A DNA stretch of 24,000 bases from Rhodospirillales bacterium (GTDB taxonomy: Bacteria; Pseudomonadota; Alphaproteobacteria; Kiloniellales; DSM-21159): NCBI GenBank assembly GCA_965247175.1, contig OZ252006.1, forward strand, positions 3,396,786-3,420,785. The letters are read 5' to 3'. This document shows positions 1,226-12,855 of this stretch, in pieces. Made by a program: the position numbers and the translations under genes. How positions within the stretch are numbered: position 1 is the stretch's first letter; each line of letters starts with the position of its first letter. Under the pieces are notes generated by a model that saw only the letters and a list, made by a program, of their open reading frames with translations, was not told the DNA's origin and made no database searches.

Positions 1226-1603
1226 ATGGCCAAACGCTTCATCGTCGAGGTTCCGGGCGTGCCCAAGTCGCCCTCGCCCATCTCTAACGCGGTCGTGGTG
1301 GGCGACACCTGCCACATCTCGGGGCAGCTCGCCGTCTACGACGAGGGCTATCGGCCCGGGACGGCGCGCGAGGAGGCCGAGCGCGCCTTCGAGCTGGTCT
1401 TCGCCATCGCCAAGGAAGCCGGCTTCGCGCGATCGGACATCGTCTACGTCGACCTCGCCTTCTCCGATCTAGCCGAGCTGCCTGAGGTCAACGCCCTCTA
1501 CGGCGAGCTGTTCGATCCCCGGCCCGCCCGCACGATCTATCAGGCCGCGGCCTTGCCCTTCGGCGCCAAAGTGAAGGTGCAGGCCATCGCCATGAAGGGC
1601 TAG
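1226..1603 (+). CDS. RidA/YjgF/UK114 family reactive-intermediate (enamine/imine) deaminase
   Basis: 125-aa ORF of typical RidA size and pattern (ISGQLA..., ARTIYQAAALPFGAKVKVQAIA at the C-terminus). AAGAGGA Shine-Dalgarno at 1213-1219, 6 nt before the ATG. It sits 51 nt downstream of the PLP deaminase. Confidence 0.85.
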   Translation: MAKRFIVEVPGVPKSPSPISNAVVVGDTCHISGQLAVYDEGYRPGTAREEAERAFELVFAIAKEAGFARSDIVYVDLAFSDLAELPEVNALYGELFDPRPARTIYQAAALPFGAKVKVQAIAMKG

Positions 1604-2990: not shown

Positions 2991-3042
2991 GCGACCCCAT
3001 GCCGAGACCAGGTCCCTAGCTCTGGCGTTTGCCGCCGTCGAT

Positions 3043-3065
3043 CCGTGAAGCAAGCGGCTTCACGG
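3043..3065 (+). terminator. Perfect 9-bp stem / 5-nt loop hairpin between the MFS gene and sugE
   Basis: CCGTGAAGC (3043-3051), AAGCG loop, GCTTCACGG (3057-3065), about 53 nt after the MFS stop. There is no downstream T-run, so it is not a canonical intrinsic terminator. It could be a weak terminator or an RNA-stabilising element. Confidence 0.3.
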
Positions 3066-3117
3066 CGCGGCCCCATCCGTGGAGGATGCAAGCGACTGAG
3101 ATCTAGGAGTATCGAGA

Positions 3118-3471
3118 ATGAGCGCACTCGGCCTGTCCGCCGTATCGGTTGCTTGGATTGCCCTCCTCTTGGCCGGGCTCTTCGAGATTGGCTGGCCCGT
3201 GGGGCTCAAGATCTCCCAGCAGCCCGGCCGCTTTGCGCCCGGCATCGCCTTGGCCGGCGTCTGCATCTTCGTGTCGGGTATGCTTCTCTGGTACGCGCAG
3301 AAGACGATCCCCATCGGCACGGCCTACGCGGTCTGGGTCGGTATCGGGGCAGCGGGGACCTTCCTGGTCGGGGTCGCGTTCTTCGGCGATACGGCGACGC
3401 TTGTCCGGGTGCTCGGCATCGTGCTGATCGTCGGCGGCGTCGTGACGCTCAAGCTCGGCAGCGTCAGCTAA
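3118..3471 (+). CDS. sugE: SMR-family small multidrug-resistance protein, SugE/Gdx (guanidinium exporter) type
   Basis: 117 aa with four TM segments. GLFEIGWPVGLK (conserved membrane Glu) and PIGTAYAVWVGIGAAGT closely resemble E. coli SugE (LLEVVWAVGLK, PVGTAYAVWTGIGAVG). AGGAG at 3105-3109, 8 nt before the ATG. Confidence 0.85.
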   Translation: MSALGLSAVSVAWIALLLAGLFEIGWPVGLKISQQPGRFAPGIALAGVCIFVSGMLLWYAQKTIPIGTAYAVWVGIGAAGTFLVGVAFFGDTATLVRVLGIVLIVGGVVTLKLGSVS

Positions 3472-3483
3472 CGGCTTGCGGGA

Positions 3484-4122
3484 TCAGGTCAGCTCCCTTA
3501 GCCCGCTCGGCGTCTCGATCTCGGCCCGGTAGCGGAGCTTGGGCCCCCGGACGATCGCCGGCGGACGGTCGATGGCGAGGTCGCGGTAGAGCGCCTCGAT
3601 GGCGGCCGGATCGGGATGTTCCAGGGTGAAGCCACGGAGGCGGGCGCCGAGATCGGGGATGGCGCCCATGGGCTCGGGCGCCCCGCGGCGGTCGATGATC
3701 GAGGGGGCCGCGCCGTCGAGGGGGAGCGAACCGTCCGCGGGGATGGCAAAGGCGAACGAGGGGTCGGCCGGCGGCAGCGGCACCTCCTCCCCGAAGGTCC
3801 CGGGGTGGGCGGAGAGAAGGCCGGCCATGTCCGCGGTGCCGGCAACCCAGCCGCGCAGACGCCGTCCGTCGGCCCAGTCCGACCTGACCTGCGCTTGGTC
3901 GTCGAGACCGAACCAGCGGGCCTGGCCGGGCGCGATACCCTCCGGATCCCACGCCACGATCTCGAGATAGACCGCGCCGCCGAGCCGAAGCCGGTGATTG
4001 TGTGTGCCCATGTAGTCATGCGTCGCCCCGAAGGGCACATCGAGGCCGAGGCAGTCCCGGACATGCGCCACCCCTTCGGCCAAGCTGGGGGCGATGACGG
4101 TGATGTGGTCGAGCGTCAGCAT
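3484..4122 (-). CDS. VOC / glyoxalase-like domain protein
   Basis: 212 aa. MLTLDHITVIAPSLAEG...THNHRLRLGG..YLEIVAWDPEG is the pattern I associate with the glyoxalase-like (Glyoxalase_3-type) domain. GGAGG at 4132-4136 on the coding strand, 9 nt upstream of the ATG. Confidence 0.7.
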   Translation of the reverse strand: MLTLDHITVIAPSLAEGVAHVRDCLGLDVPFGATHDYMGTHNHRLRLGGAVYLEIVAWDPEGIAPGQARWFGLDDQAQVRSDWADGRRLRGWVAGTADMAGLLSAHPGTFGEEVPLPPADPSFAFAIPADGSLPLDGAAPSIIDRRGAPEPMGAIPDLGARLRGFTLEHPDPAAIEALYRDLAIDRPPAIVRGPKLRYRAEIETPSGLRELT

Positions 4123-4267
4123 GTGCGGAAACCTCCGTTGCTACCCCAGGAGCGCGGTCGATCGGACCTGCCGAGAAAATCGACGGGAACCTATGATCTG
4201 GATGGGTCTTCGGCGGGGCGAGTCCCTACCTAGACTACCGTGTGTTCAGCCGTCCAGGAGACCCGAC

Positions 4268-4681
4268 GTGCCACGAGAGACTTTGCAGCCGCCCAAACTG
4301 TTCGACAGCAAGAAATGGGGATTCTCGCAGGTCGTCGTCTCGCCGCCCGGACGGACCGTGCATATCGCCGGCCAGGTCGCATGGGATGCGAGCGAGCGCA
4401 TCGTGGCGGACGACCTGGAGAGCCAGTTCAGGAAAACGCTGGAGCACGTCTTCATCGCCGTTCGGGCGGCGGGCGGAGAACCGGACGACCTCCAGTCCCT
4501 TCGCTTCTATATCCCGAACTTCCGGCCGGGAGAGGACGCCGAGACGATCGCGCGCGTTCTCGTCGATGTCTTCGGCACGGAAAACCCGCCGGCCTCCTCG
4601 TGGATCGGCGTTCAGGCGCTGGCCCAGCCCGAGTATCTGATCGAGGTCGAAGCGACCGCCATCGTCCCGGACCCCGCATGA
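4268..4681 (+). CDS. RidA/YjgF family protein (second paralogue)
   Basis: VHIAGQVAWDASERIV...LESQFRKTLEHVFIAV...PASSWIGVQALAQPEYLIEVEATAIV fits the YjgF/RidA fold pattern. I chose GTG 4268 because AGGAG (4256-4260) lies 7 nt upstream. The track ORF begins at 4094, but that extension is Arg/Cys-rich and runs into the divergent promoter region. Confidence 0.75.
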   Translation: MPRETLQPPKLFDSKKWGFSQVVVSPPGRTVHIAGQVAWDASERIVADDLESQFRKTLEHVFIAVRAAGGEPDDLQSLRFYIPNFRPGEDAETIARVLVDVFGTENPPASSWIGVQALAQPEYLIEVEATAIVPDPA

Positions 4682-5316
4682 CTCCAGACGAGATCGCCCA
4701 TCGTTTCCCGCGGCTCTATCACGTGACCGAGCCGGGCGCGCAGGAGAGCGTGCGCCGGCACGGGCTGCTCTCGACCGTCGCGCTGCTCGATCTCTTCGAG
4801 ACGCCGGCGGCCGAACGGCTCCCGTTGTTGCAGGCGCGGCGGCCGGATCCCGTGCCGCTCTCCCACCCGGTCCATGGCCAAGCGATCCTCAACGACCAGC
4901 GGCCCTTGTCGATGAAAGCGCTGGAGACTTGCCTCGACGACGGCCTCGCGCCGGCCGATTGGCTCGGCCTGCTCAACGGCAAGGTGTTCTTCTGGCCAGA
5001 CGAAAAGCAGCTACAGCGCTTGACCCAGGCGCGCGCCAACCGGGCGCGCCAGCGGGAGGTCCTCGTCTTCGATACGGCGCGGCTGATGGAGGAGAGCTTC
5101 GAGCGACTGCGTCTCTCGCCGATCAACAGCGGCAATACCATGCGACGCCCGGCCCGGCGCGGCCTCGCCACCTTCGCGCTGGCCAAAGACCATGCCTGGG
5201 AGGACTGGCGCGGCCTGCGCGGACGCCGCGACAGCGTGGTCGAGATCGCCATCGACCATCGGGTTGCCTCGGCCGGCGATGCGCTCCTGGAGGTCAGGCG
5301 CGTCGGCGAGGCATGA
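4678..5316 (+). CDS. Conserved hypothetical protein with possible ADP-ribosyltransferase-like (H-x-T ... aromatic ... E) motif order
   Basis: The start ATG overlaps the ridA-like stop (ATGA at 4678-4681). 212 aa with FPRLYHVTEPG at the N-terminus, GKVFFWPDE mid-protein and SVVEIAIDH near the C-terminus. I recall similar proteins annotated only as a DUF, and I cannot name the family with certainty. Confidence 0.6.
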   Translation: MTPDEIAHRFPRLYHVTEPGAQESVRRHGLLSTVALLDLFETPAAERLPLLQARRPDPVPLSHPVHGQAILNDQRPLSMKALETCLDDGLAPADWLGLLNGKVFFWPDEKQLQRLTQARANRARQREVLVFDTARLMEESFERLRLSPINSGNTMRRPARRGLATFALAKDHAWEDWRGLRGRRDSVVEIAIDHRVASAGDALLEVRRVGEA

Positions 5317-5358
5317 CGACCGGATTGTCGCGTTTGTTGAACAACCTGCCGATGGTGA
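5314..5358 (+). repeat. Copy A of a ~50-nt intergenic repeat (TGACGAC ... ACCTGCCGATGGTGA)
   Basis: It shares an exact 7-mer (TGACGAC, directly at a stop codon) and an exact 15-mer (ACCTGCCGATGGTGA, 5344-5358) in the same order and orientation with copy B. GATTG and TTG blocks lie between them. Confidence 0.55.
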
Positions 5359-5364
5359 ACTCAC

Positions 5365-6147
5365 ATGCCTGAACTCGCCGACTTCTTGTCGTTCGCGGTC
5401 GCACTGGCCGACGCCTCTGCCTGCCACGCCAGAGACCATTGGCGTGGCGACTTCGCCGTGACCTACAAGTCAGATGGATCCTCTTTGACGGACGCCGATC
5501 TGAGCATCGAAGCGACCTGGCGGGAGCTCATCCGTCAGCGCTTCCCCTCGCATGGCATCCTGGGAGAGGAATACGGCTCCGAAAGCGGCAGCAGCGCCTA
5601 CACCTGGGTTCTCGATCCGATCGACGGGACGCGTCAGTTCGGAACGGGGCTGCTGAACTTCGCCTCCCTCGTCAGCCTGTGCCGCGACGGCTCTCCGGTC
5701 CTCGGCATCATCGATCTGCCGTTGAGCGGCATGCGATACGTGGCGGCCGAAGGACAGGGCACGCGCTTCGACGGCCGCCCGGTCCGGAGCAGTGGGCAAG
5801 GCGACATCGGCTCCGCGATCGTCAGCCTGGCAAACCCCGAGAGCTTCACCGGCGATGCGGCGGGAGGCTACGAGCGGATGCGCGCCTGCGGGCGGCTCAG
5901 GGTGTTCGACGGCGGGGCGCCGGCCTATGGCGCGCTCTCGCGCGGACTGATCGACGTTTGCCTCAACGGAAGCGATCTCGACGCCTTCGACATCTGCGCG
6001 CTCTGTCCGGTCGTGACGGAAGCCGGGGGCGCGATCTCCGACTGGACCGGGCAAGCCCTGTCGATCGCATCGCGCGGCGTCATCGTCGCCAGCGCCTCTC
6101 CTGATCTTCATGCCGTCGTGCTGAGCAAACTCACGGAACTTGTTTGA
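5365..6147 (+). CDS. Inositol monophosphatase family enzyme (IMPase / HisN / CysQ-like phosphatase)
   Basis: 260 aa with the family motifs GILGEEYG, WVLDPIDGTRQF and the C-terminal DICALCPVVTEAGGAISDW. Substrate cannot be assigned from sequence alone. Confidence 0.8.
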   Translation: MPELADFLSFAVALADASACHARDHWRGDFAVTYKSDGSSLTDADLSIEATWRELIRQRFPSHGILGEEYGSESGSSAYTWVLDPIDGTRQFGTGLLNFASLVSLCRDGSPVLGIIDLPLSGMRYVAAEGQGTRFDGRPVRSSGQGDIGSAIVSLANPESFTGDAAGGYERMRACGRLRVFDGGAPAYGALSRGLIDVCLNGSDLDAFDICALCPVVTEAGGAISDWTGQALSIASRGVIVASASPDLHAVVLSKLTELV

Positions 6148-6214
6148 AAGCCAGGTTGGGTCGGCTTGAACCAGCTCCCATGGCCCGCGGCACCGGTCGG
6201 GCCTCCGGGACATG

Positions 6215-6265
6215 TGACGACAGATTGGTTGCCCTTGCAGTTGTAAAACGACCTGCCGATGGTGA
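6215..6265 (+). repeat. Copy B of the ~50-nt intergenic repeat
   Basis: TGACGAC at 6215-6221 and ACCTGCCGATGGTGA at 6251-6265. It lies in the low-GC3, apparently non-coding gap after the IMPase-family gene. Confidence 0.55.
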
Positions 6266-6308
6266 CAGCGGGTGGGAACCGTTTCTCGACCGAGAGGGAG
6301 TCTGGAAG

Positions 6309-6443
6309 GTGTCGCACTTCGAGTTGATTGCGCTTGCCGCTTTTATCGTCGCCGCCGTCATCTTCACCGTCAGCATCGGGCTGCTGCTGATGCTGGCGCT
6401 GACGCTCTACCGCGAGCGTCAAATGGCGGCCGGAAACCAATAA
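6309..6443 (+). CDS. Putative 44-aa single-pass membrane peptide
   Basis: GTG 6309 is preceded by GAGGGAG (6294-6300) at 8-nt spacing. The product VSHFELIALAAFIVAAVIFTVSIGLLLMLALTLYRERQMAAGNQ is one clean TM helix with a basic tail. Third-position GC is high from 6309 onward (about 36 of 44 codons by my count) but drops in 6180-6308, arguing against the longer 99-aa track ORF. Confidence 0.4.
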   Translation: MSHFELIALAAFIVAAVIFTVSIGLLLMLALTLYRERQMAAGNQ

Positions 6444-6461
6444 GGCTCTAGAGTCCGCCCG

Positions 6462-7064
6462 ATGAGTGAGCCCGCAGACGAGGTCGTCGAGCTCTACCGG
6501 CGTCATGCGCAAGCCTGGGCGCAGGCCCGCGGCGCGAAACTGATCGAGGGGGCATGGCTCGATCGTTTCACAGCGCTCTTGCCCGAACAGGCGGAGATAC
6601 TCGATCTGGGCTGCGGCCCGGGCGTGCCGATCGGGCACGCGCTCGTCGCCCGCGGACACACGCTGACCGGCGTGGACGCCGCCCCCGAGATGATCGCGCT
6701 CTTCGAGAAGAACCTGCCGGGACAAGAAGCCATCGTGGCGGATATGCGCGCGCTGCGACTACAGCGGCTATTCGACGGCCTGCTGGCGTGGGACAGCTTC
6801 TTCCACCTGCCGCCCACGGCGCAGCGCGCGATGTTCCCGGTTTTCCGGGAACATGCCAAACCTGGCGCCGCCCTGATGTTCACCAGCGGCCCCACCTGTG
6901 GCGAGGCGATCGGTGCGCTTGAAGGCGAGCCGCTCTATCATGCGAGCCTGGGGCCCGATGAGTATCGCGCGCTGCTGGATCAAAACGGCTTCGAGATCGT
7001 CTGTCACGCCGTCGAGGATCCGGACTGCGGCGGGCATAGCGTGTGGCTCGCGCAGCGGCGGTGA
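6462..7064 (+). CDS. Class I SAM-dependent methyltransferase
   Basis: 200 aa with SAM-binding motif I ILDLGCGPGVP, followed by an acidic residue after beta-2 (LTGVDAAPEM) and LLAWDSFFHL (motif II/III region). Confidence 0.8.
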   Translation: MSEPADEVVELYRRHAQAWAQARGAKLIEGAWLDRFTALLPEQAEILDLGCGPGVPIGHALVARGHTLTGVDAAPEMIALFEKNLPGQEAIVADMRALRLQRLFDGLLAWDSFFHLPPTAQRAMFPVFREHAKPGAALMFTSGPTCGEAIGALEGEPLYHASLGPDEYRALLDQNGFEIVCHAVEDPDCGGHSVWLAQRR

Positions 7065-7070
7065 GAGGCG

Positions 7071-7610
7071 TCAGTCTAGCTCGACGACCCCGCAGGCCAC
7101 GCGGGGTCCCGCGCCGCCGATCGGCTGGGTGATGTGATCGTCCGGGTTCTCGTGGATGACGAAGGCCGAGCCGTCGCTGTCGATCAGGTTCTCACCGGGA
7201 CCCTCGCCGATGCTGACGAAATGGGTGAAGAGCTCGACCTCTCCGATGCCGTCGGCGCCGATGAAGATGTTCGGCAGGTCGCCCGCTTCCGGGCCATCGG
7301 GATTCATCAAGCCGTGCGCGCCTGGCGCCTTGCCGACGTGACCCATGGATGAGGTGAAGCCGTCTTCGGGATTGCAGACCCCGGCGCTGTGCAAATGCAG
7401 CCCGTGCTTCCCAGGCGTCATGTCGGACACTCTGATGTGGATAAGGATTCCATGCGGGCCCTGCATGATGTTGGCGAAGCCGATCTCGTCGCCGTTGCCG
7501 TCAATCATGACGGCGCTGGCGGTTGCAGGCTCCGCGGCCACGGCGAGGCTGGACGCACTGAGGCAAATGCTGGCCGCCAAGGCGGCGATGCCGATCGATA
7601 GGGTCTTCAT
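7071..7610 (-). CDS. sodC: Periplasmic Cu,Zn superoxide dismutase
   Basis: GLHLHSAGVCNP, GHVG, GDLPNIFIGADG, SAFVIHENPDDH and GGAGPRVACGVV are the SodC metal-ligand and disulfide motifs. Signal peptide MKTLSIGIAALAASICLSASSLAVA. ATG at 7610 is preceded by GGAGGA (7616-7621 on the coding strand). The track ORF extension to 7697 is rejected. Confidence 0.9.
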   Translation of the reverse strand: MKTLSIGIAALAASICLSASSLAVAAEPATASAVMIDGNGDEIGFANIMQGPHGILIHIRVSDMTPGKHGLHLHSAGVCNPEDGFTSSMGHVGKAPGAHGLMNPDGPEAGDLPNIFIGADGIGEVELFTHFVSIGEGPGENLIDSDGSAFVIHENPDDHITQPIGGAGPRVACGVVELD

Positions 7611-7840
7611 TGTCTTCCTCCCGACTGTCTTTGGCCTATTGGTCCTTGCCATGACGTTCGGCGATTGAGACCGCGATCGGCCTGGACACCCACGCACGGC
7701 AGGTCGTCACGATAAAGCAGCCGCTCCGCAATCAGAAACTCGTTTCCCCATAGCTTTGATAGCCGATGCGAATGAGCGGGCGGATGCGATGGCCGAGCCG
7801 TGTCCGACGCGGCGCATCCTTCGACCGGCGGTAAGCCGGC

Positions 7841-10264
7841 TTAGGCCACCGCCTCCAGGCTCGGGACGGCCGCCGGGTCTTCGAGCGCTTCCCACTCCAG
7901 GTCCCCGACATAGCGGTAGGCGAGGCAGCCCTCGGCATCCATCGCAAAGAGGTGCAGCCAGCGATTGTCGAACAGCGCGCGCACCCCGTCGTGGCGCCGC
8001 AGGATGTCGGTCATGGCCTCGCGCGGCGCCTCGATGCAAACTGACAGGCGCAGCGGGTCATGGCTGCTCCGCTCGCCGTCGTTCACTGACTGCCAGGGCA
8101 GGCCGGCGCGCAGCAGCCCGCCGTTGCCTTCGAAGACACCGATGCCGCCGACCACGTTGTGCAGCAGCTTGTTGCCCGAGCCGAAGGTCTGCGGCGCGAC
8201 GGTCGAGCCGTAGTACTGCAGGCTGATCCAGCTCGCCACCACCACCGGCGCGGTCATGATCAGCTCCAGCACACCGAAGCCCTTCTCGCTGTCCTGCTTC
8301 CAGTCGTAGTCGTGCAGGAAAGCGCGGCCCTCCAGGCTGCGTCCGGCGGTGCGGCTGCGCGGGGCGGCGATGAAGGCCTTGCAGCCGGCCAGCGCCCATT
8401 CGGGCCGCACCTCGGCCCAGTCGCGAGAACGCGCGGCAATGTCACCTTCGGCGGCGGCGCGCGGCAGGCGCAAGGCCCGCTCGCCGCGCGTCACCTTGCC
8501 GGCCGCCGCCAGCCACTGCCGGACCCGCCGGAGGTCAGAGGCATGCTCGGGCGAGAGCCGGTCCCGGTCGTAGAGCGTCACCGCGTCGGTGGTTGTGTCG
8601 TGCAGCGCCGCGACGAAGAGCGTGTCCTCCGGCAGGATGATGCCCCGCGCCACCAAACCCTGGCGCACCTCCGTATCGTTGAGCAGCCCGGCCAGCAGCC
8701 GCGCGTTGACCTCTCCCGAGTAGCCGCCGCAGGCGCCGCAGTGCAGCCCGCTGGCATGGGGGTTGTTGACCACGTTGGCGCCGTGGCCGGCGAGCACCAC
8801 GACCCGGGCGAAGCCGCTGGTCAGCGACATGGCGCGCAGCACCGTCTCCGCCGCGCCGATGCGCGTGTCTAGGTCGAGCGACGGGTCGAAGCGCGGCGCG
8901 GGATCGTTGGGCACGGCCATGGGGTTGAGGCCGAGCGCGTCGCGAATCAGCTTGCCGATGTAGACCGGGCCCATGGCCTCGACGAAGGCGAAGGAGGAGA
9001 CGGCGGCGAGCTTGAAGCGCCCCCAGGCCCGCTTGGCACGCGCGGCATAGCGGGCGGCCAGATCGTCGGCCGCGCTGTCGTGGCTGCCCGAGCAGGAGGT
9101 GACGGTGGGGTTGAGCAGCACCGGCAGGCGCAACTCCTCCACGTCCGAGGCGAAGCGGCGATGCTTGGCGAAGACGCCGAAGAAGCCGGCGAAGCCCAGC
9201 GTGCGGATGGCGGGGTCGACGGCTTCGAGGGCGCGGCGGAAGACCTCCGAGCGCACGTCGATGCAGAAGGCCATCTGCAGGGCCGGCCGCGTCTCCCCGC
9301 CGAGGGGCGCCGGGGCTGCGAGCGTTTCGCCGAGGCCGCGTTGGGCGGCGCGCTCGGCGGCTTCCTGCAGGATGGCATCGACGATCAGGGCTGCGCCCGG
9401 CGCGGGCGCGGCCTCGTGCGCGACACGCACCATGCCCCAGTCGTCGGCGATCGCCGCCTCGTGCTGCGCGAACAAGGCCTCTTCCCAGAGCAGCCGGATG
9501 GCCAGGAAGTCAGTGATCGTGCTGTCCGACTCCTCGACCAGCTCGGCGCGCCAGAGCTGATAGCGCGCATACTGCGCCCAGCCGCCGAGCGAGAAGAGAA
9601 GCTGGTGGAAATAGCTCTCCAGCGCGCGTTCGCTTAGGCCGAGCCGCTGCACGGCGCGGGCGATCGCGTCCCGGGGGTTCTGCGGCGCCTCGGCGACGAA
9701 GGCGGCGAAGCCCTCCAGCCCCATGATCTCCGGCGTCAGGTCGTGGGTGCCGTGGGCGCAGAAGGCCGCCCAGGCGCGCTTGCCGCGCGGGGCCGCCCAG
9801 AGCGCCTGGCCCTGGTCGAAGTAGCCGCCCGCCCAGGCGCCGAAGCGCTCGGCGAGCAGGCCGGGCCAATCCATGCCGCTGGCCTCGGCTGCGAGATCGG
9901 CGATGGTCGGCAGCGCTTCGGGCTCCGGCCGCGCGTCTGCGGCGGCAGCCTTCAGCGCGGCGACGTCGGCCGGCTTGTCGGCATGGGGGGAGGCCGCCAG
10001 CGCGGCGGCCAGGTCATCCTCGGTGATCTCGCCGGAGGCAATGCGGCTGAGATACCAGTCGCGCGGCATGGCGACCGGGACCCCGCCGATACGGCCGAGC
10101 CGCGCGCCCGCTTCGGCGAGCGTCTCACCGGTTTGTCCAAGGTAGGGATTGACCGCGACGTAGGAGGCGAGCGGCCAGAGCGGCGGGATCTGGCGGGCCG
10201 CCGCGTCGCCGGCAGTCTCAAGAGCCGAGAGGTCGATGGGCGCAGTCGTGGCGTCGGTCATCAT
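7841..10264 (-). CDS. dabA: DabA (DUF2309) - catalytic, beta-carbonic-anhydrase-like subunit of a DAB inorganic-carbon pump
   Basis: 807 aa with [41 protein letters not shown] and [27 protein letters not shown]. Start ATGATG at 10264/10261 with AGGAG (10274-10278 on the coding strand) 9 nt upstream. It lies 22 nt after the dabB stop. Confidence 0.9.
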
Positions 10265-10286
10265 GGGTCTTGTCTCCTCTCGGGGG

Positions 10287-11846
10287 TCAGGCGGAGCGGC
10301 GGCGGGACCAGTTGCCAACCAGGCGGTCGAACACCGCGTTGGCGTAAAGCCCGTTCGACAGGTGCACGCGCAGGCCGGCGGCGGCCGGGTGATAGGCCCA
10401 GAGTGGGAACATGGCCTGAGCGATGGCCACCATGCCGAAGCTGAAGACCGCGAGCGCCAGAAGCGTCCATTCGAGCGGCCCCGGCGCGGGGGTCGGCGGC
10501 AGGGTGCCGGCGGTCAGCCATTCCGCGCCGGTCTGCAGGGCGAAGTAGCTGACAGAGGCGACGACGGCGTAGAGCGCGACGCGACGGGTCAGCACCTGCG
10601 GCGCCGCATCGGCCAATCCCTGGGCCAGGAGGTAGGCGACACCGAAGATCAGGATGGCGCCCAGGGCGATGGCCTGCGGCGACTTGCCGTCGAGCCCGAA
10701 GGCGAAGGCGGTCACCGCATAGATCGCCAATGCCAGGACGAAGGCGCGGGCCACCGCCCAGCCGTTGGGGATGGCGACCGGGCCCGGCCGGCGAATAGCC
10801 GCCACCAGGTCCACCGCCGTGCCGGAGGCCAGGAAGGCGTGCGCCTTATAGAGCGAGTGGGCGACGATGTGCAGCAGCGCCAGCGGGAAGAGCGCCAGGC
10901 CGCACTGCATGATCATGAAGCCCATCTGGGCGATGGTCGACCAAGCGAGGGAGCTCTTGACCGCCGGCTGGGCCAGCATGGCAAGCCCGCCGAACAGCGC
11001 GGTGAAGCCACCCACCATGACCAGAACCGCCAGAATGCCCGGCGCCAGCAGCATCACGTCGGCAAAGCGGATCAGCAGGAAGCCGCCGGCGTTGATCACC
11101 CCGGCATGCAGCAGCGCAGAGACCGGCGTCGGCGTCTCCATCACCTCGATCAGCCAGCCGTGGGTCGGGAACTGCGCGGACTTGAGAATCGCGGCGAGCG
11201 CCAGCAGGCCGGCCGCCCAGATCGCTCCGGCAGGGGCGACGCCTTCGCGCGCCTCCGTGAGGATCGTTTCGATGTCGGCGGTGCCGTAGCCGAAGAAAAG
11301 TAGCAGCGCCGCGCCGATCAGGGCCGCATCGCCGAGCCGCGAGGTCACCGACTTCTTGCGCGCCGCCCGGATGGCCTGGATGCGGCTGCGATAGAACAGC
11401 AGCAGCCGATGCAGGCAGAGGCTGGTCGCCACCCAGGCGGCGACCAGGTGGACGAGGTTGCCCGACTGAACCAGCAGCAGCACGGCGGCCAAGGTTGCGG
11501 TCATCCAGCCGAGGAAGGCGCCCTGGCGCGCTTCGCCATCGAGATAGGAGCGGGAGTAGCGCACCACCACCCAGCCGACGAAGGCGACGAGAACCAGCAT
11601 GATGGCGCTCACCGCATCCAGCCGTGACGACAGCCCGACCTCCCCGATGCCCAGCAGCGGCCCGGTGCCGGCACCCTCGACGATCACGATCGCTGCCGCG
11701 CCAAGCGCCGCGGCCAGCGCCACCAGGGCTGCGGCCTCGGCGAACTGGGGGACCAGCTTTGGGCGCTGCCCCGGCCGCGTGAAGGCGAAGGCCGCGGCCA
11801 GGAGCAGCACGGCGGGGGCGATCAGGGGCACGAGATCGTAGAGCAT
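10287..11846 (-). CDS. dabB: DabB - NuoL/NuoM/MnhA-type cation-translocating membrane subunit of a DAB pump
   Basis: 519 aa and polytopic, with the proton-antiporter-core motifs [28 protein letters not shown] and [15 protein letters not shown] 11846 ([16 protein letters not shown]) has GGAGAC upstream. The alternative GTG at 11912 would add a 22-aa Pro-rich extension. Confidence 0.88.
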
Positions 11847-11944
11847 CGGCAGGTCGTCTCCGGGGACGGGGCGGGGCGGCGGATCGAACGCTTCCGGATC
11901 TAGGCCCTGCACAGCATCAAGAAAAATACATTGTTTTGGGCTTT

Positions 11945-11965
11945 TCGTTCTGTTTCATAGAACGA
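11945..11965. promoter_or_regulatory. Perfect dyad TCGTTCT-N7-AGAACGA (contains a T-N11-A LysR-type box) in the dabB/lysR divergent region
   Basis: TCGTTCT 11945-11951 and AGAACGA 11959-11965 are exact reverse complements. The dyad sits in an unusually AT-rich stretch and ends 2 nt before the regulator ATG (11968). Confidence 0.55.
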
Positions 11966-11967
11966 TT

Positions 11968-12855
11968 ATGGCCGAGCTGAACTATCACCATCTGCGCTAT
12001 TTCCAGGTCGTCGCGCACGAGGGCAACCTGACCCGGGCGGCGGCGCGGCTGAACGTGTCGCAGTCGGCGGTCTCGACCCAGATACGCCAGCTCGAGGAGC
12101 GGGTCGGCCAAGACCTCTTCGAGCGCCGCGGCCGGGCGCTGATTCTCACCGAGGCGGGGCGCATCGCGCTCGACCATGCCGACGCCATCTTCGCCACCGG
12201 GCAGGAGCTCATCGCCACACTGCAGCAAAGCGGGCGCGCGCGGAAGGCGCTGCGCGTCGGCTCCCTGGCCACCCTATCGCGCAACTTCCAGCTCGCCTTC
12301 CTGCGCCCGATGCTCGGCCGGCCCGATGTCGAGGTCATCCTGCGCTCGGGCAGCGCGGTCGAGCTCTACAGCGCGCTCGCTGCCTTGAATCTCGATCTGG
12401 TGCTGACCAACCAGCCACCGCCGGCCGACGCCTTGACCTCTTTCATCGCGCAGCGCCTGGACGAGCAGAGCGTCAGCCTGATCGGCGTGCCCGCGCTCTG
12501 CCCGCCGGGCCTGTCCCTGGCCGAGCGCCTGGACGAGGCGACCCTCGTCCTGCCGACGGCGGGCAGCGGCCTGCGCATGGGCTTCGATGCCCTGATCGAC
12601 CGGCTGGGTGTGACGCCGCAGATCGCCGCCGAGGTCGACGACATGGCGATGATGCGTCTCTTGGCGCGGGAAGGGGTCGGCCTGGCCGTGCTGCCGCCCA
12701 TCGTGGTGCGCGACGAGCTGGCGGGCGGCAGCCTGGTCGAATGCGCCAAGCTGCCCAATCTCACCGAGCCCTTCTATGGCGTCACGGTCGAGCGACGCTT
12801 TCCCAACCCGCTGCTCGCCGACCTGCTGCGCGAGACGCGGGTTGGGTCTGCGTAG
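11968..12855 (+). CDS. LysR-family transcriptional regulator, NhaR-like subgroup
   Basis: MAELNYHHLRYFQVVAHEGNLTRAAARLNVSQSAVSTQIRQLEERVGQDLFERRGRAL matches by eye the NhaR N-terminus (..NYNHLYYFWHV.KEGS..GAAEAL.L.PQTIT.QIRALEERL...LF.R.GR.L). It is divergent from dabB. Confidence 0.85.
   Translation: MAELNYHHLRYFQVVAHEGNLTRAAARLNVSQSAVSTQIRQLEERVGQDLFERRGRALILTEAGRIALDHADAIFATGQELIATLQQSGRARKALRVGSLATLSRNFQLAFLRPMLGRPDVEVILRSGSAVELYSALAALNLDLVLTNQPPPADALTSFIAQRLDEQSVSLIGVPALCPPGLSLAERLDEATLVLPTAGSGLRMGFDALIDRLGVTPQIAAEVDDMAMMRLLAREGVGLAVLPPIVVRDELAGGSLVECAKLPNLTEPFYGVTVERRFPNPLLADLLRETRVGSA

Follow-up and report, generated by a model that had tools for sequence, protein, structure and literature searches.

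In RidA, an arginine residue (Arg105 in Escherichia coli) is essential for imine hydrolysis. The Rid4–7 proteins lack this residue and appear not to hydrolyze imines, serine occupies the position in about 10% of RidA proteins, and the Rid1–3 proteins are associated with amine oxidases (Niehaus et al., 2015; PMC4433059). Other systems close to the genes considered here are DarT, the single-stranded DNA ADP-ribosyltransferase of the DarTG system, the RNA 2'-phosphotransferase Tpt1/KptA (PF01885), and HisN of the IMPase family. Genes for a Rid protein, a DUF7002 protein, an IMPase-family phosphatase, a 44-aa membrane open reading frame (ORF), and an S-adenosylmethionine-dependent methyltransferase (MTase) form a string on the plus strand (4268–7064) of a 24,000-nt stretch of a Rhodospirillales bacterium (contig OZ252006.1, positions 3,396,786–3,420,785; hereafter the window, to which coordinates refer). 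Co-oriented and tightly packed genes are common in bacteria, so the tight spacing of the string alone is not above chance. A preliminary description of the DNA had taken the five genes for one operon serving an unrecognized pathway. The comparison presented here indicates that the string is very probably a patchwork of accessory genes that are unrelated but share an orientation, located at a small, indel-prone chromosomal hot spot of a Rhodovibrionaceae-like alphaproteobacterium, and not a conserved operon or pathway.

Gene linkage across genomes and among close relatives

A scan of the genome collection with the DUF7002 profile gave 80 loci. Their flanking ORFs were called by a simple heuristic based on GC content at third codon positions (GC3) and ORF length (the longest ORF) and then scanned against Pfam, and the loci were searched by tblastn with the Rid, IMPase, membrane ORF, MTase, VOC, SMR, and SodC sequences of the window. 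Rid, IMPase, MTase, VOC, or SMR occurred within 6 kb in only one of the 80 loci, L001, which belongs to a Rhodovibrionaceae metagenome-assembled genome (MAG) and whose DUF7002 is 90% identical to that of the window. The immediate neighbors of DUF7002 fall into 68 Pfam families upstream and 78 downstream, with Rid upstream in one of 76 loci and Inositol_P downstream in none of 77, and the sole recurrent neighbor in the Pfam scan is an adenylosuccinate-synthetase-like gene. Clustering the ORFs of the loci all against all led to the same result. Beyond close relatives, the gene order of the string was not found to be conserved.

The relatives of the locus share 88–93% protein identity and 82–87% DNA identity with it, yet their gene arrangement varies. 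L083 carries SMR, an amine oxidase and VOC (both on the minus strand), Rid, DUF7002, IMPase, a 130-aa membrane protein, and DUF2268, and its contig stops before the position of the MTase. L082 has the same order through DUF2268 and continues with MTase, HAD, and further genes. In L001, a 779-aa minus-strand ORF (L001:6721–9060) splits DUF7002 from IMPase. The DUF2268 gene lies behind the membrane-protein gene in L001, L082, and L083, and directly before the MTase in L001 and L082. Two independent assemblies, L085 and L086, contain Rid, an intact DUF7002, the 130-aa protein, a broken MTase, and SodC (minus strand) and lack IMPase; their MTase is frameshifted and deleted, with residues 1–65 and 103–199 in different frames. 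At 75% identity (L081), the start of DUF7002 is overlapped by a gene of the PEP_mutase family, and both Rid and IMPase are missing. Upstream of the string, a FAD Amino_oxidase gene of 565–576 aa stands between SMR and VOC in L001, L082, and L083 and is absent from the window, where the SMR–VOC gap is only 12 bp (3471–3484), compared with L001:2935–4808. Synteny is lost upstream of ~3086, where the relatives carry a TetR gene and a YjhX toxin gene.

Between close relatives, the FAD amine oxidase, the 779-aa ORF, IMPase, and DUF2268 have thus been gained or lost one by one. The adjacency of Rid and DUF7002 is the only constant within the clade of at least 88% identity, and it is accounted for by shared descent. 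In L082, the 108-bp part of DUF7002 that codes for its most conserved loop (SPINSG..RRPARRG) is swapped in frame for 156 unrelated bp (L082:6379–6535); either the gene has been inactivated or the assembly of this MAG is at fault. The 779-aa ORF of L001 shows weak N-terminal matches to TIR and nucleoside 2-deoxyribosyltransferase-like domains as well as AAA_16/STAND-like matches, and may be a defense-type gene.

Direct repeats and the compact layout

Three of the variable genes, the 779-aa ORF, IMPase, and DUF2268, are bracketed by 44–84-bp direct repeats of local sequence. In the window, IMPase lies between ~52-bp direct repeats (Table 1), the right copy of which (6214–6265) contains the invariant 15-mer ACCTGCCGATGGTGA; a search with the pattern of the IMPase repeat gave two matches, against 0.00 expected by chance. 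L085 and L086, which lack IMPase, have a single copy of this repeat. In L001, direct repeats over 10 kb fall into just three families, each around one variable gene, and the window has single repeat copies at the would-be sites of DUF2268 and the 779-aa ORF.

The 44-aa ORF has a related history. The preliminary description had listed it as a transmembrane peptide; the ORF and its membrane character stand, but it is a remnant rather than a peptide in its own right. It retains 18 codons from the beginning and 26 from the end of the gene for a conserved 130-aa protein with multiple transmembrane segments, the part between them having been removed by an in-frame internal deletion of 258 bp, and it starts with GTG in place of the original ATG. 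The full protein, whose family is unassigned, is kept in all five relatives. The 44-aa ORF has a GC3 of 0.80 and a GC content at second codon positions of 0.36, and no Pfam match was found for it. Because the repeat-bracketed genes vary and the membrane-protein gene carries the 258-bp deletion, the tight packing of the string is best regarded as a product of insertions and deletions, which may have proceeded by either att-like integration or repeat-mediated deletion.

A 19-codon ORF (5313–5372) was considered as a further gene. Most of it falls within the left copy of the IMPase repeat, an in-frame TAA is present in the right copy, and L085 has the ORF at a different length; on these grounds it is treated as non-coding, which falls short of proof.

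DUF7002, a predicted ADP-ribosyltransferase-fold family

The 212-aa protein of the string matches PF22531 (DUF7002) over profile positions 1–193 of 195 and scores 216.5 bits, the Pfam gathering cutoff being 27. A look-up of this exact protein returned no existing record. The family comprises 1,755 clusters at 50% identity (E ≤ 1e-3), and its members are mostly single-domain proteins of ~210 aa. No other Pfam match was found for the window protein at E ≤ 10, its sequence gave only a spurious match in the PDB (E = 1.6), and weak matches to the Tpt1 Pfam model were obtained for three of 29 DUF7002 members, the best with E = 0.011. The AlphaFold2 model of the window protein has a pLDDT of 89.8. 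Its best Foldseek match in the PDB is E. coli DarT1 (8baq; E = 1.7e-4, probability 1.0, TM-score 0.46), followed by DarTG, cholera toxin A1/LT, pertussis toxin S1, and Tpt1/KptA. The top PDB matches are all ADP-ribosyltransferases (ARTs), and matches in BFVD are phage DarT and Tpt1-like proteins. The label "ART-like", given to this ORF before any search had been run, is thus borne out by PF22531 and the DarT1 match.

Residues H15 (in LYHVT, strand 12–17) and E189 (strand 189–193) are invariant in 29 homologues, a pattern that would fit an H...E active site of ARTs. On the basis of the predicted fold, DUF7002 is probably an NAD+-dependent ADP-ribosyltransferase with no target assigned, a view held somewhat more readily than its opposite. 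It would probably act as a stand-alone enzyme related to DarT and Tpt1 that transfers ADP-ribose from NAD+ to a nucleic acid, a nucleotide, or a protein. PADLOC returned no match for DUF7002, Rid, or IMPase, and no paper on DUF7002 or the three-gene cassette described below was found in the literature library searched.

Outside the window, DUF7002 recurs in a distinct setting. A gene encoding a P-loop kinase-like domain fused to a PurA-like enzyme lies directly upstream of DUF7002 in 12 of 86 loci, complete in ten and reduced to a short remnant in two, and in L068 this gene and DUF7002 are fused (757 aa), as they are in the 758-aa representative P0242. In eight loci and a degenerate ninth, the PurA-like gene is preceded by a gene encoding an M78 peptidase of the IrrE/CapP type joined to a macrodomain. 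The profile of this protein matches 2afc, 2fg1, and 5e3b in the PDB at ~1e-45, CapP at 2e-8, and IrrE at 3e-8. The three-gene cassette is present in L057 (2800–6663), L065, L066, L068, L069, L071, L072, and L073, is degenerate in L075, and lacks the first gene in L064. These loci belong to Acidobacteriota, Verrucomicrobiota, and Chloroflexota, and the gene order is kept across the phyla. Some copies of the cassette are preceded by a sigma-70-like gene. A macrodomain partner is expected for an enzyme making a reversible ADP-ribose mark.

It can be proposed only tentatively that DUF7002 is an active, unstudied DarT/Tpt1-like branch of ARTs that acts, in these three phyla, as effector within a conflict or signaling cassette of three genes not yet described, and that the alphaproteobacterial copies are domesticated or orphan, the window copy being translationally coupled to a non-canonical Rid. 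The size of the family, its ART-like fold, and the macrodomain/PurA-like cassette make reversible ADP-ribosylation a testable hypothesis.

The Rid protein

The best PDB match of the Rid protein in the string is 5v4f (E = 1.5e-24). In the alignment to PH0854, "PAS" stands opposite "PAR", so that the equivalent of Arg105 is serine and the motif reads PAS-S where RidA imine deaminases have PAR-S/T. The preliminary description had called this protein an imine/enamine deaminase. Its membership in the Rid family holds, and the deaminase label is weakened by the serine in place of the essential arginine. By its sequence, it is a Rid protein of a non-archetypal type. Since Rid1–3 proteins have been associated with amine oxidases (PMC4433059), the functional partner of this Rid is more plausibly the amine oxidase of the relatives, which would have been lost from the window.

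A second Rid gene of the window (1226–1603, 125 aa) retains the catalytic arginine (PAR-T). It follows a gene for a pyridoxal phosphate (PLP)-dependent enzyme (PALP, 375 aa), the two genes together occupying 47–1603, and is the canonical Arg-containing RidA of the window. RidA and a PLP enzyme form a classic pairing.

The phosphatase and the methyltransferase

The IMPase-family protein matches PF00459 with 148 bits and contains the DPIDGT and GEE motifs. Its best NCBIfam model is TIGR02067 (HisN), at 197.4 bits, below the equivalog cutoff of 275.15; it would be a phosphatase of the sugar-phosphate or histidinol-phosphate type. Orthologues at 67–75% identity are stand-alone in unrelated contexts, including a region of Mesorhizobium that contains ArdC and ParB, a position beside cytochrome c in Roseibium, and a locus in Nisaea. 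The gene thus appears, from its distribution, to be a variable single-gene cassette in its behavior. The Mesorhizobium orthologue (L087; 75% identity) is found among ArdC, ParB, and DUF7007 genes in a region that resembles a mobile element. An apparently conserved IMPase–MTase pair in Nisaea was examined and set aside, as its 200-aa MTase is not specifically related to the window MTase (E = 0.016).

Orthologues of the window MTase (66–69% identity) either stand alone or, in two related genomes of Rhizobiales, come after genes for an RND pump and a GNAT protein. In these two genomes, one of them named Methylocella (L092–L094), the conserved run is RND pump, GNAT, MTase (~66% identity), and PadR. 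The substrate of the MTase is probably a small molecule. Its PADLOC match to mad2 was attributed to generic similarity among class I MTases.

Alternative explanations for the string

If the string is a patchwork of accessory genes, each gene would most likely act independently, and the compact layout of the window would have arisen from the absence of three variable genes together with the 258-bp deletion in the membrane-protein gene. Several points weigh against this explanation. The 4-nt overlap (ATGA) between Rid and DUF7002 is present in each of the five loci with at least 88% identity (L001, L082, L083, L085, and L086) and could reflect translational coupling. Inside the string, a search for terminator-like sites on the plus strand gave none, so one shared transcript is possible. 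A young lineage-specific pathway would be undetectable by gene-neighborhood tests, and some neighboring ORFs are likely to have been miscalled because of the simple heuristic. Read-through co-transcription of the string genes is possible but would be incidental. An operon for a lineage-specific pathway, in which an NAD- or nucleotide-derived small molecule undergoes ART transfer, dephosphorylation, and methylation, would agree with the tight spacing on one strand with no internal terminator found, with the ART fold of DUF7002, and with the PurA-like and macrodomain linkage in other phyla, which makes nucleotide or ADP-ribose chemistry plausible for DUF7002 itself. It is nonetheless very improbable and is largely refuted by comparative genomics: the gene set varies even at 90% identity, an opposite-strand gene interrupts the string in L001, L085 and L086 combine an intact DUF7002 with an MTase pseudogene and no IMPase, orthologues of each gene occur in unrelated contexts, and the 44-aa ORF is a deletion remnant. 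The operon proposed in the preliminary description thus gives way to linkage found only in near relatives, where it reflects shared descent and the gene set is variable even so.

A smaller unit, in which Rid and DUF7002 form a translationally coupled two-gene module of this clade and Rid modulates the ART-fold enzyme or processes its product, draws on the conserved overlap, on the persistence of the pair despite the variation in IMPase, MTase, DUF2268, and the 779-aa gene, and on the frequent position of DUF7002 as the last gene behind a same-strand gene, with a gap of ≤60 nt in 34 of 79 loci. Among relatives of 82–87% DNA identity, however, adjacency is expected from descent; the overlapping gene at 75% identity is PEP_mutase, Rid is upstream of DUF7002 in just the one locus of 76, and L082 keeps an intact Rid beside a seemingly inactivated DUF7002. 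Such a module is unlikely. A similarly low probability is given to a cassette array, in which mobile units of one gene each would have entered by site-specific recombination where genes already present end at their 3' side (att-like, CIME- or integron-like), with the composition of the string reflecting cassette traffic. The only three repeat families in 10 kb of L001 bracket exactly its three variable genes; in two of these families, the duplicated sequence is the 3' end of the gene before the repeat-bracketed one, and cassette-less genomes carry one repeat copy. Set against this, neither an integrase nor a transposase was found among the scanned proteins of the 24-kb window or among the genes called in the loci of the relatives, the three repeat pairs lack a core sequence in common, no Rfam match or structured-RNA signal was obtained, and repeat-mediated deletion or repair duplication gives the same pattern. 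The patchwork of accessory genes is therefore preferred to these alternatives.

Since deletions at a variable locus also yield tight same-strand packing, a neighborhood check across genomes is needed before a function is assigned at the operon level. The repeat-bracketed single-gene indels provide a small, clean example of accessory-gene turnover among related marine alphaproteobacteria. The earlier expectation that the locus holds something uncharacterized stands for the DUF7002 enzyme family and fails for the five-gene combination as a new pathway. The remaining interest lies in DUF7002 and in the repeat-bracketed turnover, neither of which is specific to that combination.

Layout of the string and its surroundings

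The coordinates, overlaps, and spacers reported in the preliminary description were confirmed in the sequence, and its family calls (RidA-like, IMPase-family, SAM methyltransferase, and VOC) were confirmed by Pfam matches (Table 1). The ATGA at 4678–4681 joins the Rid stop codon (TGA, 4679–4681) to the DUF7002 ATG (4678). A second ATGA (5313–5316) includes the DUF7002 stop codon (5314–5316) and opens the 19-codon frame, which ends at 5372 and overlaps the IMPase ATG at 5365. The gaps along the string, in which all genes are on the same strand, are −4, 48, 161, and 18 nt, the last lying between the 44-aa ORF (GTG at 6309, stop at 6443) and the MTase ATG at 6462. The spacer from the VOC start (4122, minus strand) to the Rid start (4268) is 145 bp. 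All five ORFs have coding-type GC3 values (0.80–0.86).

Table 1. Features of the string, its flanks, and the direct repeats of L001 (window coordinates unless marked L001)
Feature	Coordinates	Strand	Evidence or remark
VOC / Glyoxalase_3 gene	3484..4122	-	PF13468, E = 1.1e-28; divergent from string
Divergent VOC–Rid spacer, 145 bp	4123..4267		read from sequence
Rid (YjgF/L-PSP) family protein, 137 aa	4268..4681	+	PF01042, E = 1.6e-16
DUF7002 protein, 212 aa	4678..5316	+	PF22531, E = 3.2e-64, 216.5 bits
Left direct-repeat copy at IMPase	5307..5358	+	repeat search, alignment, blastn
IMPase-family phosphatase, 260 aa	5365..6147	+	PF00459, E = 6.4e-43
Right direct-repeat copy at IMPase	6214..6265	+	repeat search, alignment, blastn
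44-aa membrane ORF	6309..6443	+	protein and DNA alignment against L083, L085, L001
Class I SAM-dependent methyltransferase, 200 aa	6462..7064	+	Methyltransf_25, E = 4e-12; also Methyltransf_23/11
Periplasmic Cu/Zn superoxide dismutase SodC	7071..7697	-	PF00080, E = 7e-30; NF047632, E = 4.6e-50
Repeat around 779-aa ORF	L001:6601-6644/9290-9333		44 nt, 89% identity; 3' end of DUF7002
Repeat around IMPase	L001:9327-9390/10352-10415		64 nt, 77% identity
Repeat around DUF2268	L001:10766-10849/11691-11774		84 nt, 98% identity; 3' end of 130-aa gene

The window is ordinary chromosomal DNA with the order PLP enzyme, canonical RidA, MFS, SMR, VOC, the string, SodC, DabA/DabB, LysR, and onwards. SodC is convergent with the string and marks its right-hand boundary. 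The promoter scan, which included the spacer at 4123–4267, found neither sigma-70-like promoter sites nor EcfG-type GGAAC-N-CGTT sites, and a general-stress regulon promoter for the string was rejected on the latter result. No Rfam match was obtained over 3000–8000 at E ≤ 1, and folding of the repeat element and the spacers (z = 0.0, 0.06, +1.37, and −1.95) gave no consistent structure. Further downstream (7841–12855), the minus strand encodes DabA (DUF2309, 825 aa) and a proton-pumping subunit resembling DabB, which together with a LysR regulator in divergent orientation form a probable inorganic-carbon uptake module.

Comparison with known systems

The phosphatase of the string resembles HisN and the IMPase family in its PF00459 match, in having HisN as its best model, and in both motifs; unlike HisN, it scores below the equivalog cutoff, is dispensable in close relatives, and is not located beside his genes. 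The Rid protein is a clear member of PF01042, and in the relatives a FAD amine oxidase is encoded two genes away, which recalls the association reported for Rid1–3 proteins. It differs from RidA in its serine for arginine, and the window lacks the amine oxidase gene.

With Tpt1/KptA (8tg3, 9ld6), DUF7002 shares the ART fold, with Foldseek probabilities of 0.87–0.97, and putatively also the use of nucleic acids as substrates, and a phage "RNA 2'-phosphotransferase" is among its BFVD matches. All Tpt1 matches of DUF7002 are, however, under the curated thresholds, and the single-domain DUF7002 has no counterpart of the N-terminal lobe of Tpt1, which bears catalytic residues. DUF7002 is like DarT (8baq, 7omu, 7omv) in its predicted fold and its size of ~210 aa, and its invariant histidine in the first strand and glutamate in a late strand may be a further parallel. 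It differs in showing no sequence similarity to DarT (DUF4433) in Pfam or the PDB and in having no PADLOC match. No macrodomain was found in the window by tblastn or among the Pfam-scanned neighbors, so DUF7002 has no adjacent DarG-like antitoxin there. In the distant cassettes, the macrodomain differs from the DarTG arrangement in being fused to an IrrE/CapP-type M78 peptidase, and its gene is separated from DUF7002 by the P-loop/PurA-like gene; the presence of a macrodomain gene in eight or nine of these cassettes nevertheless recalls DarG.

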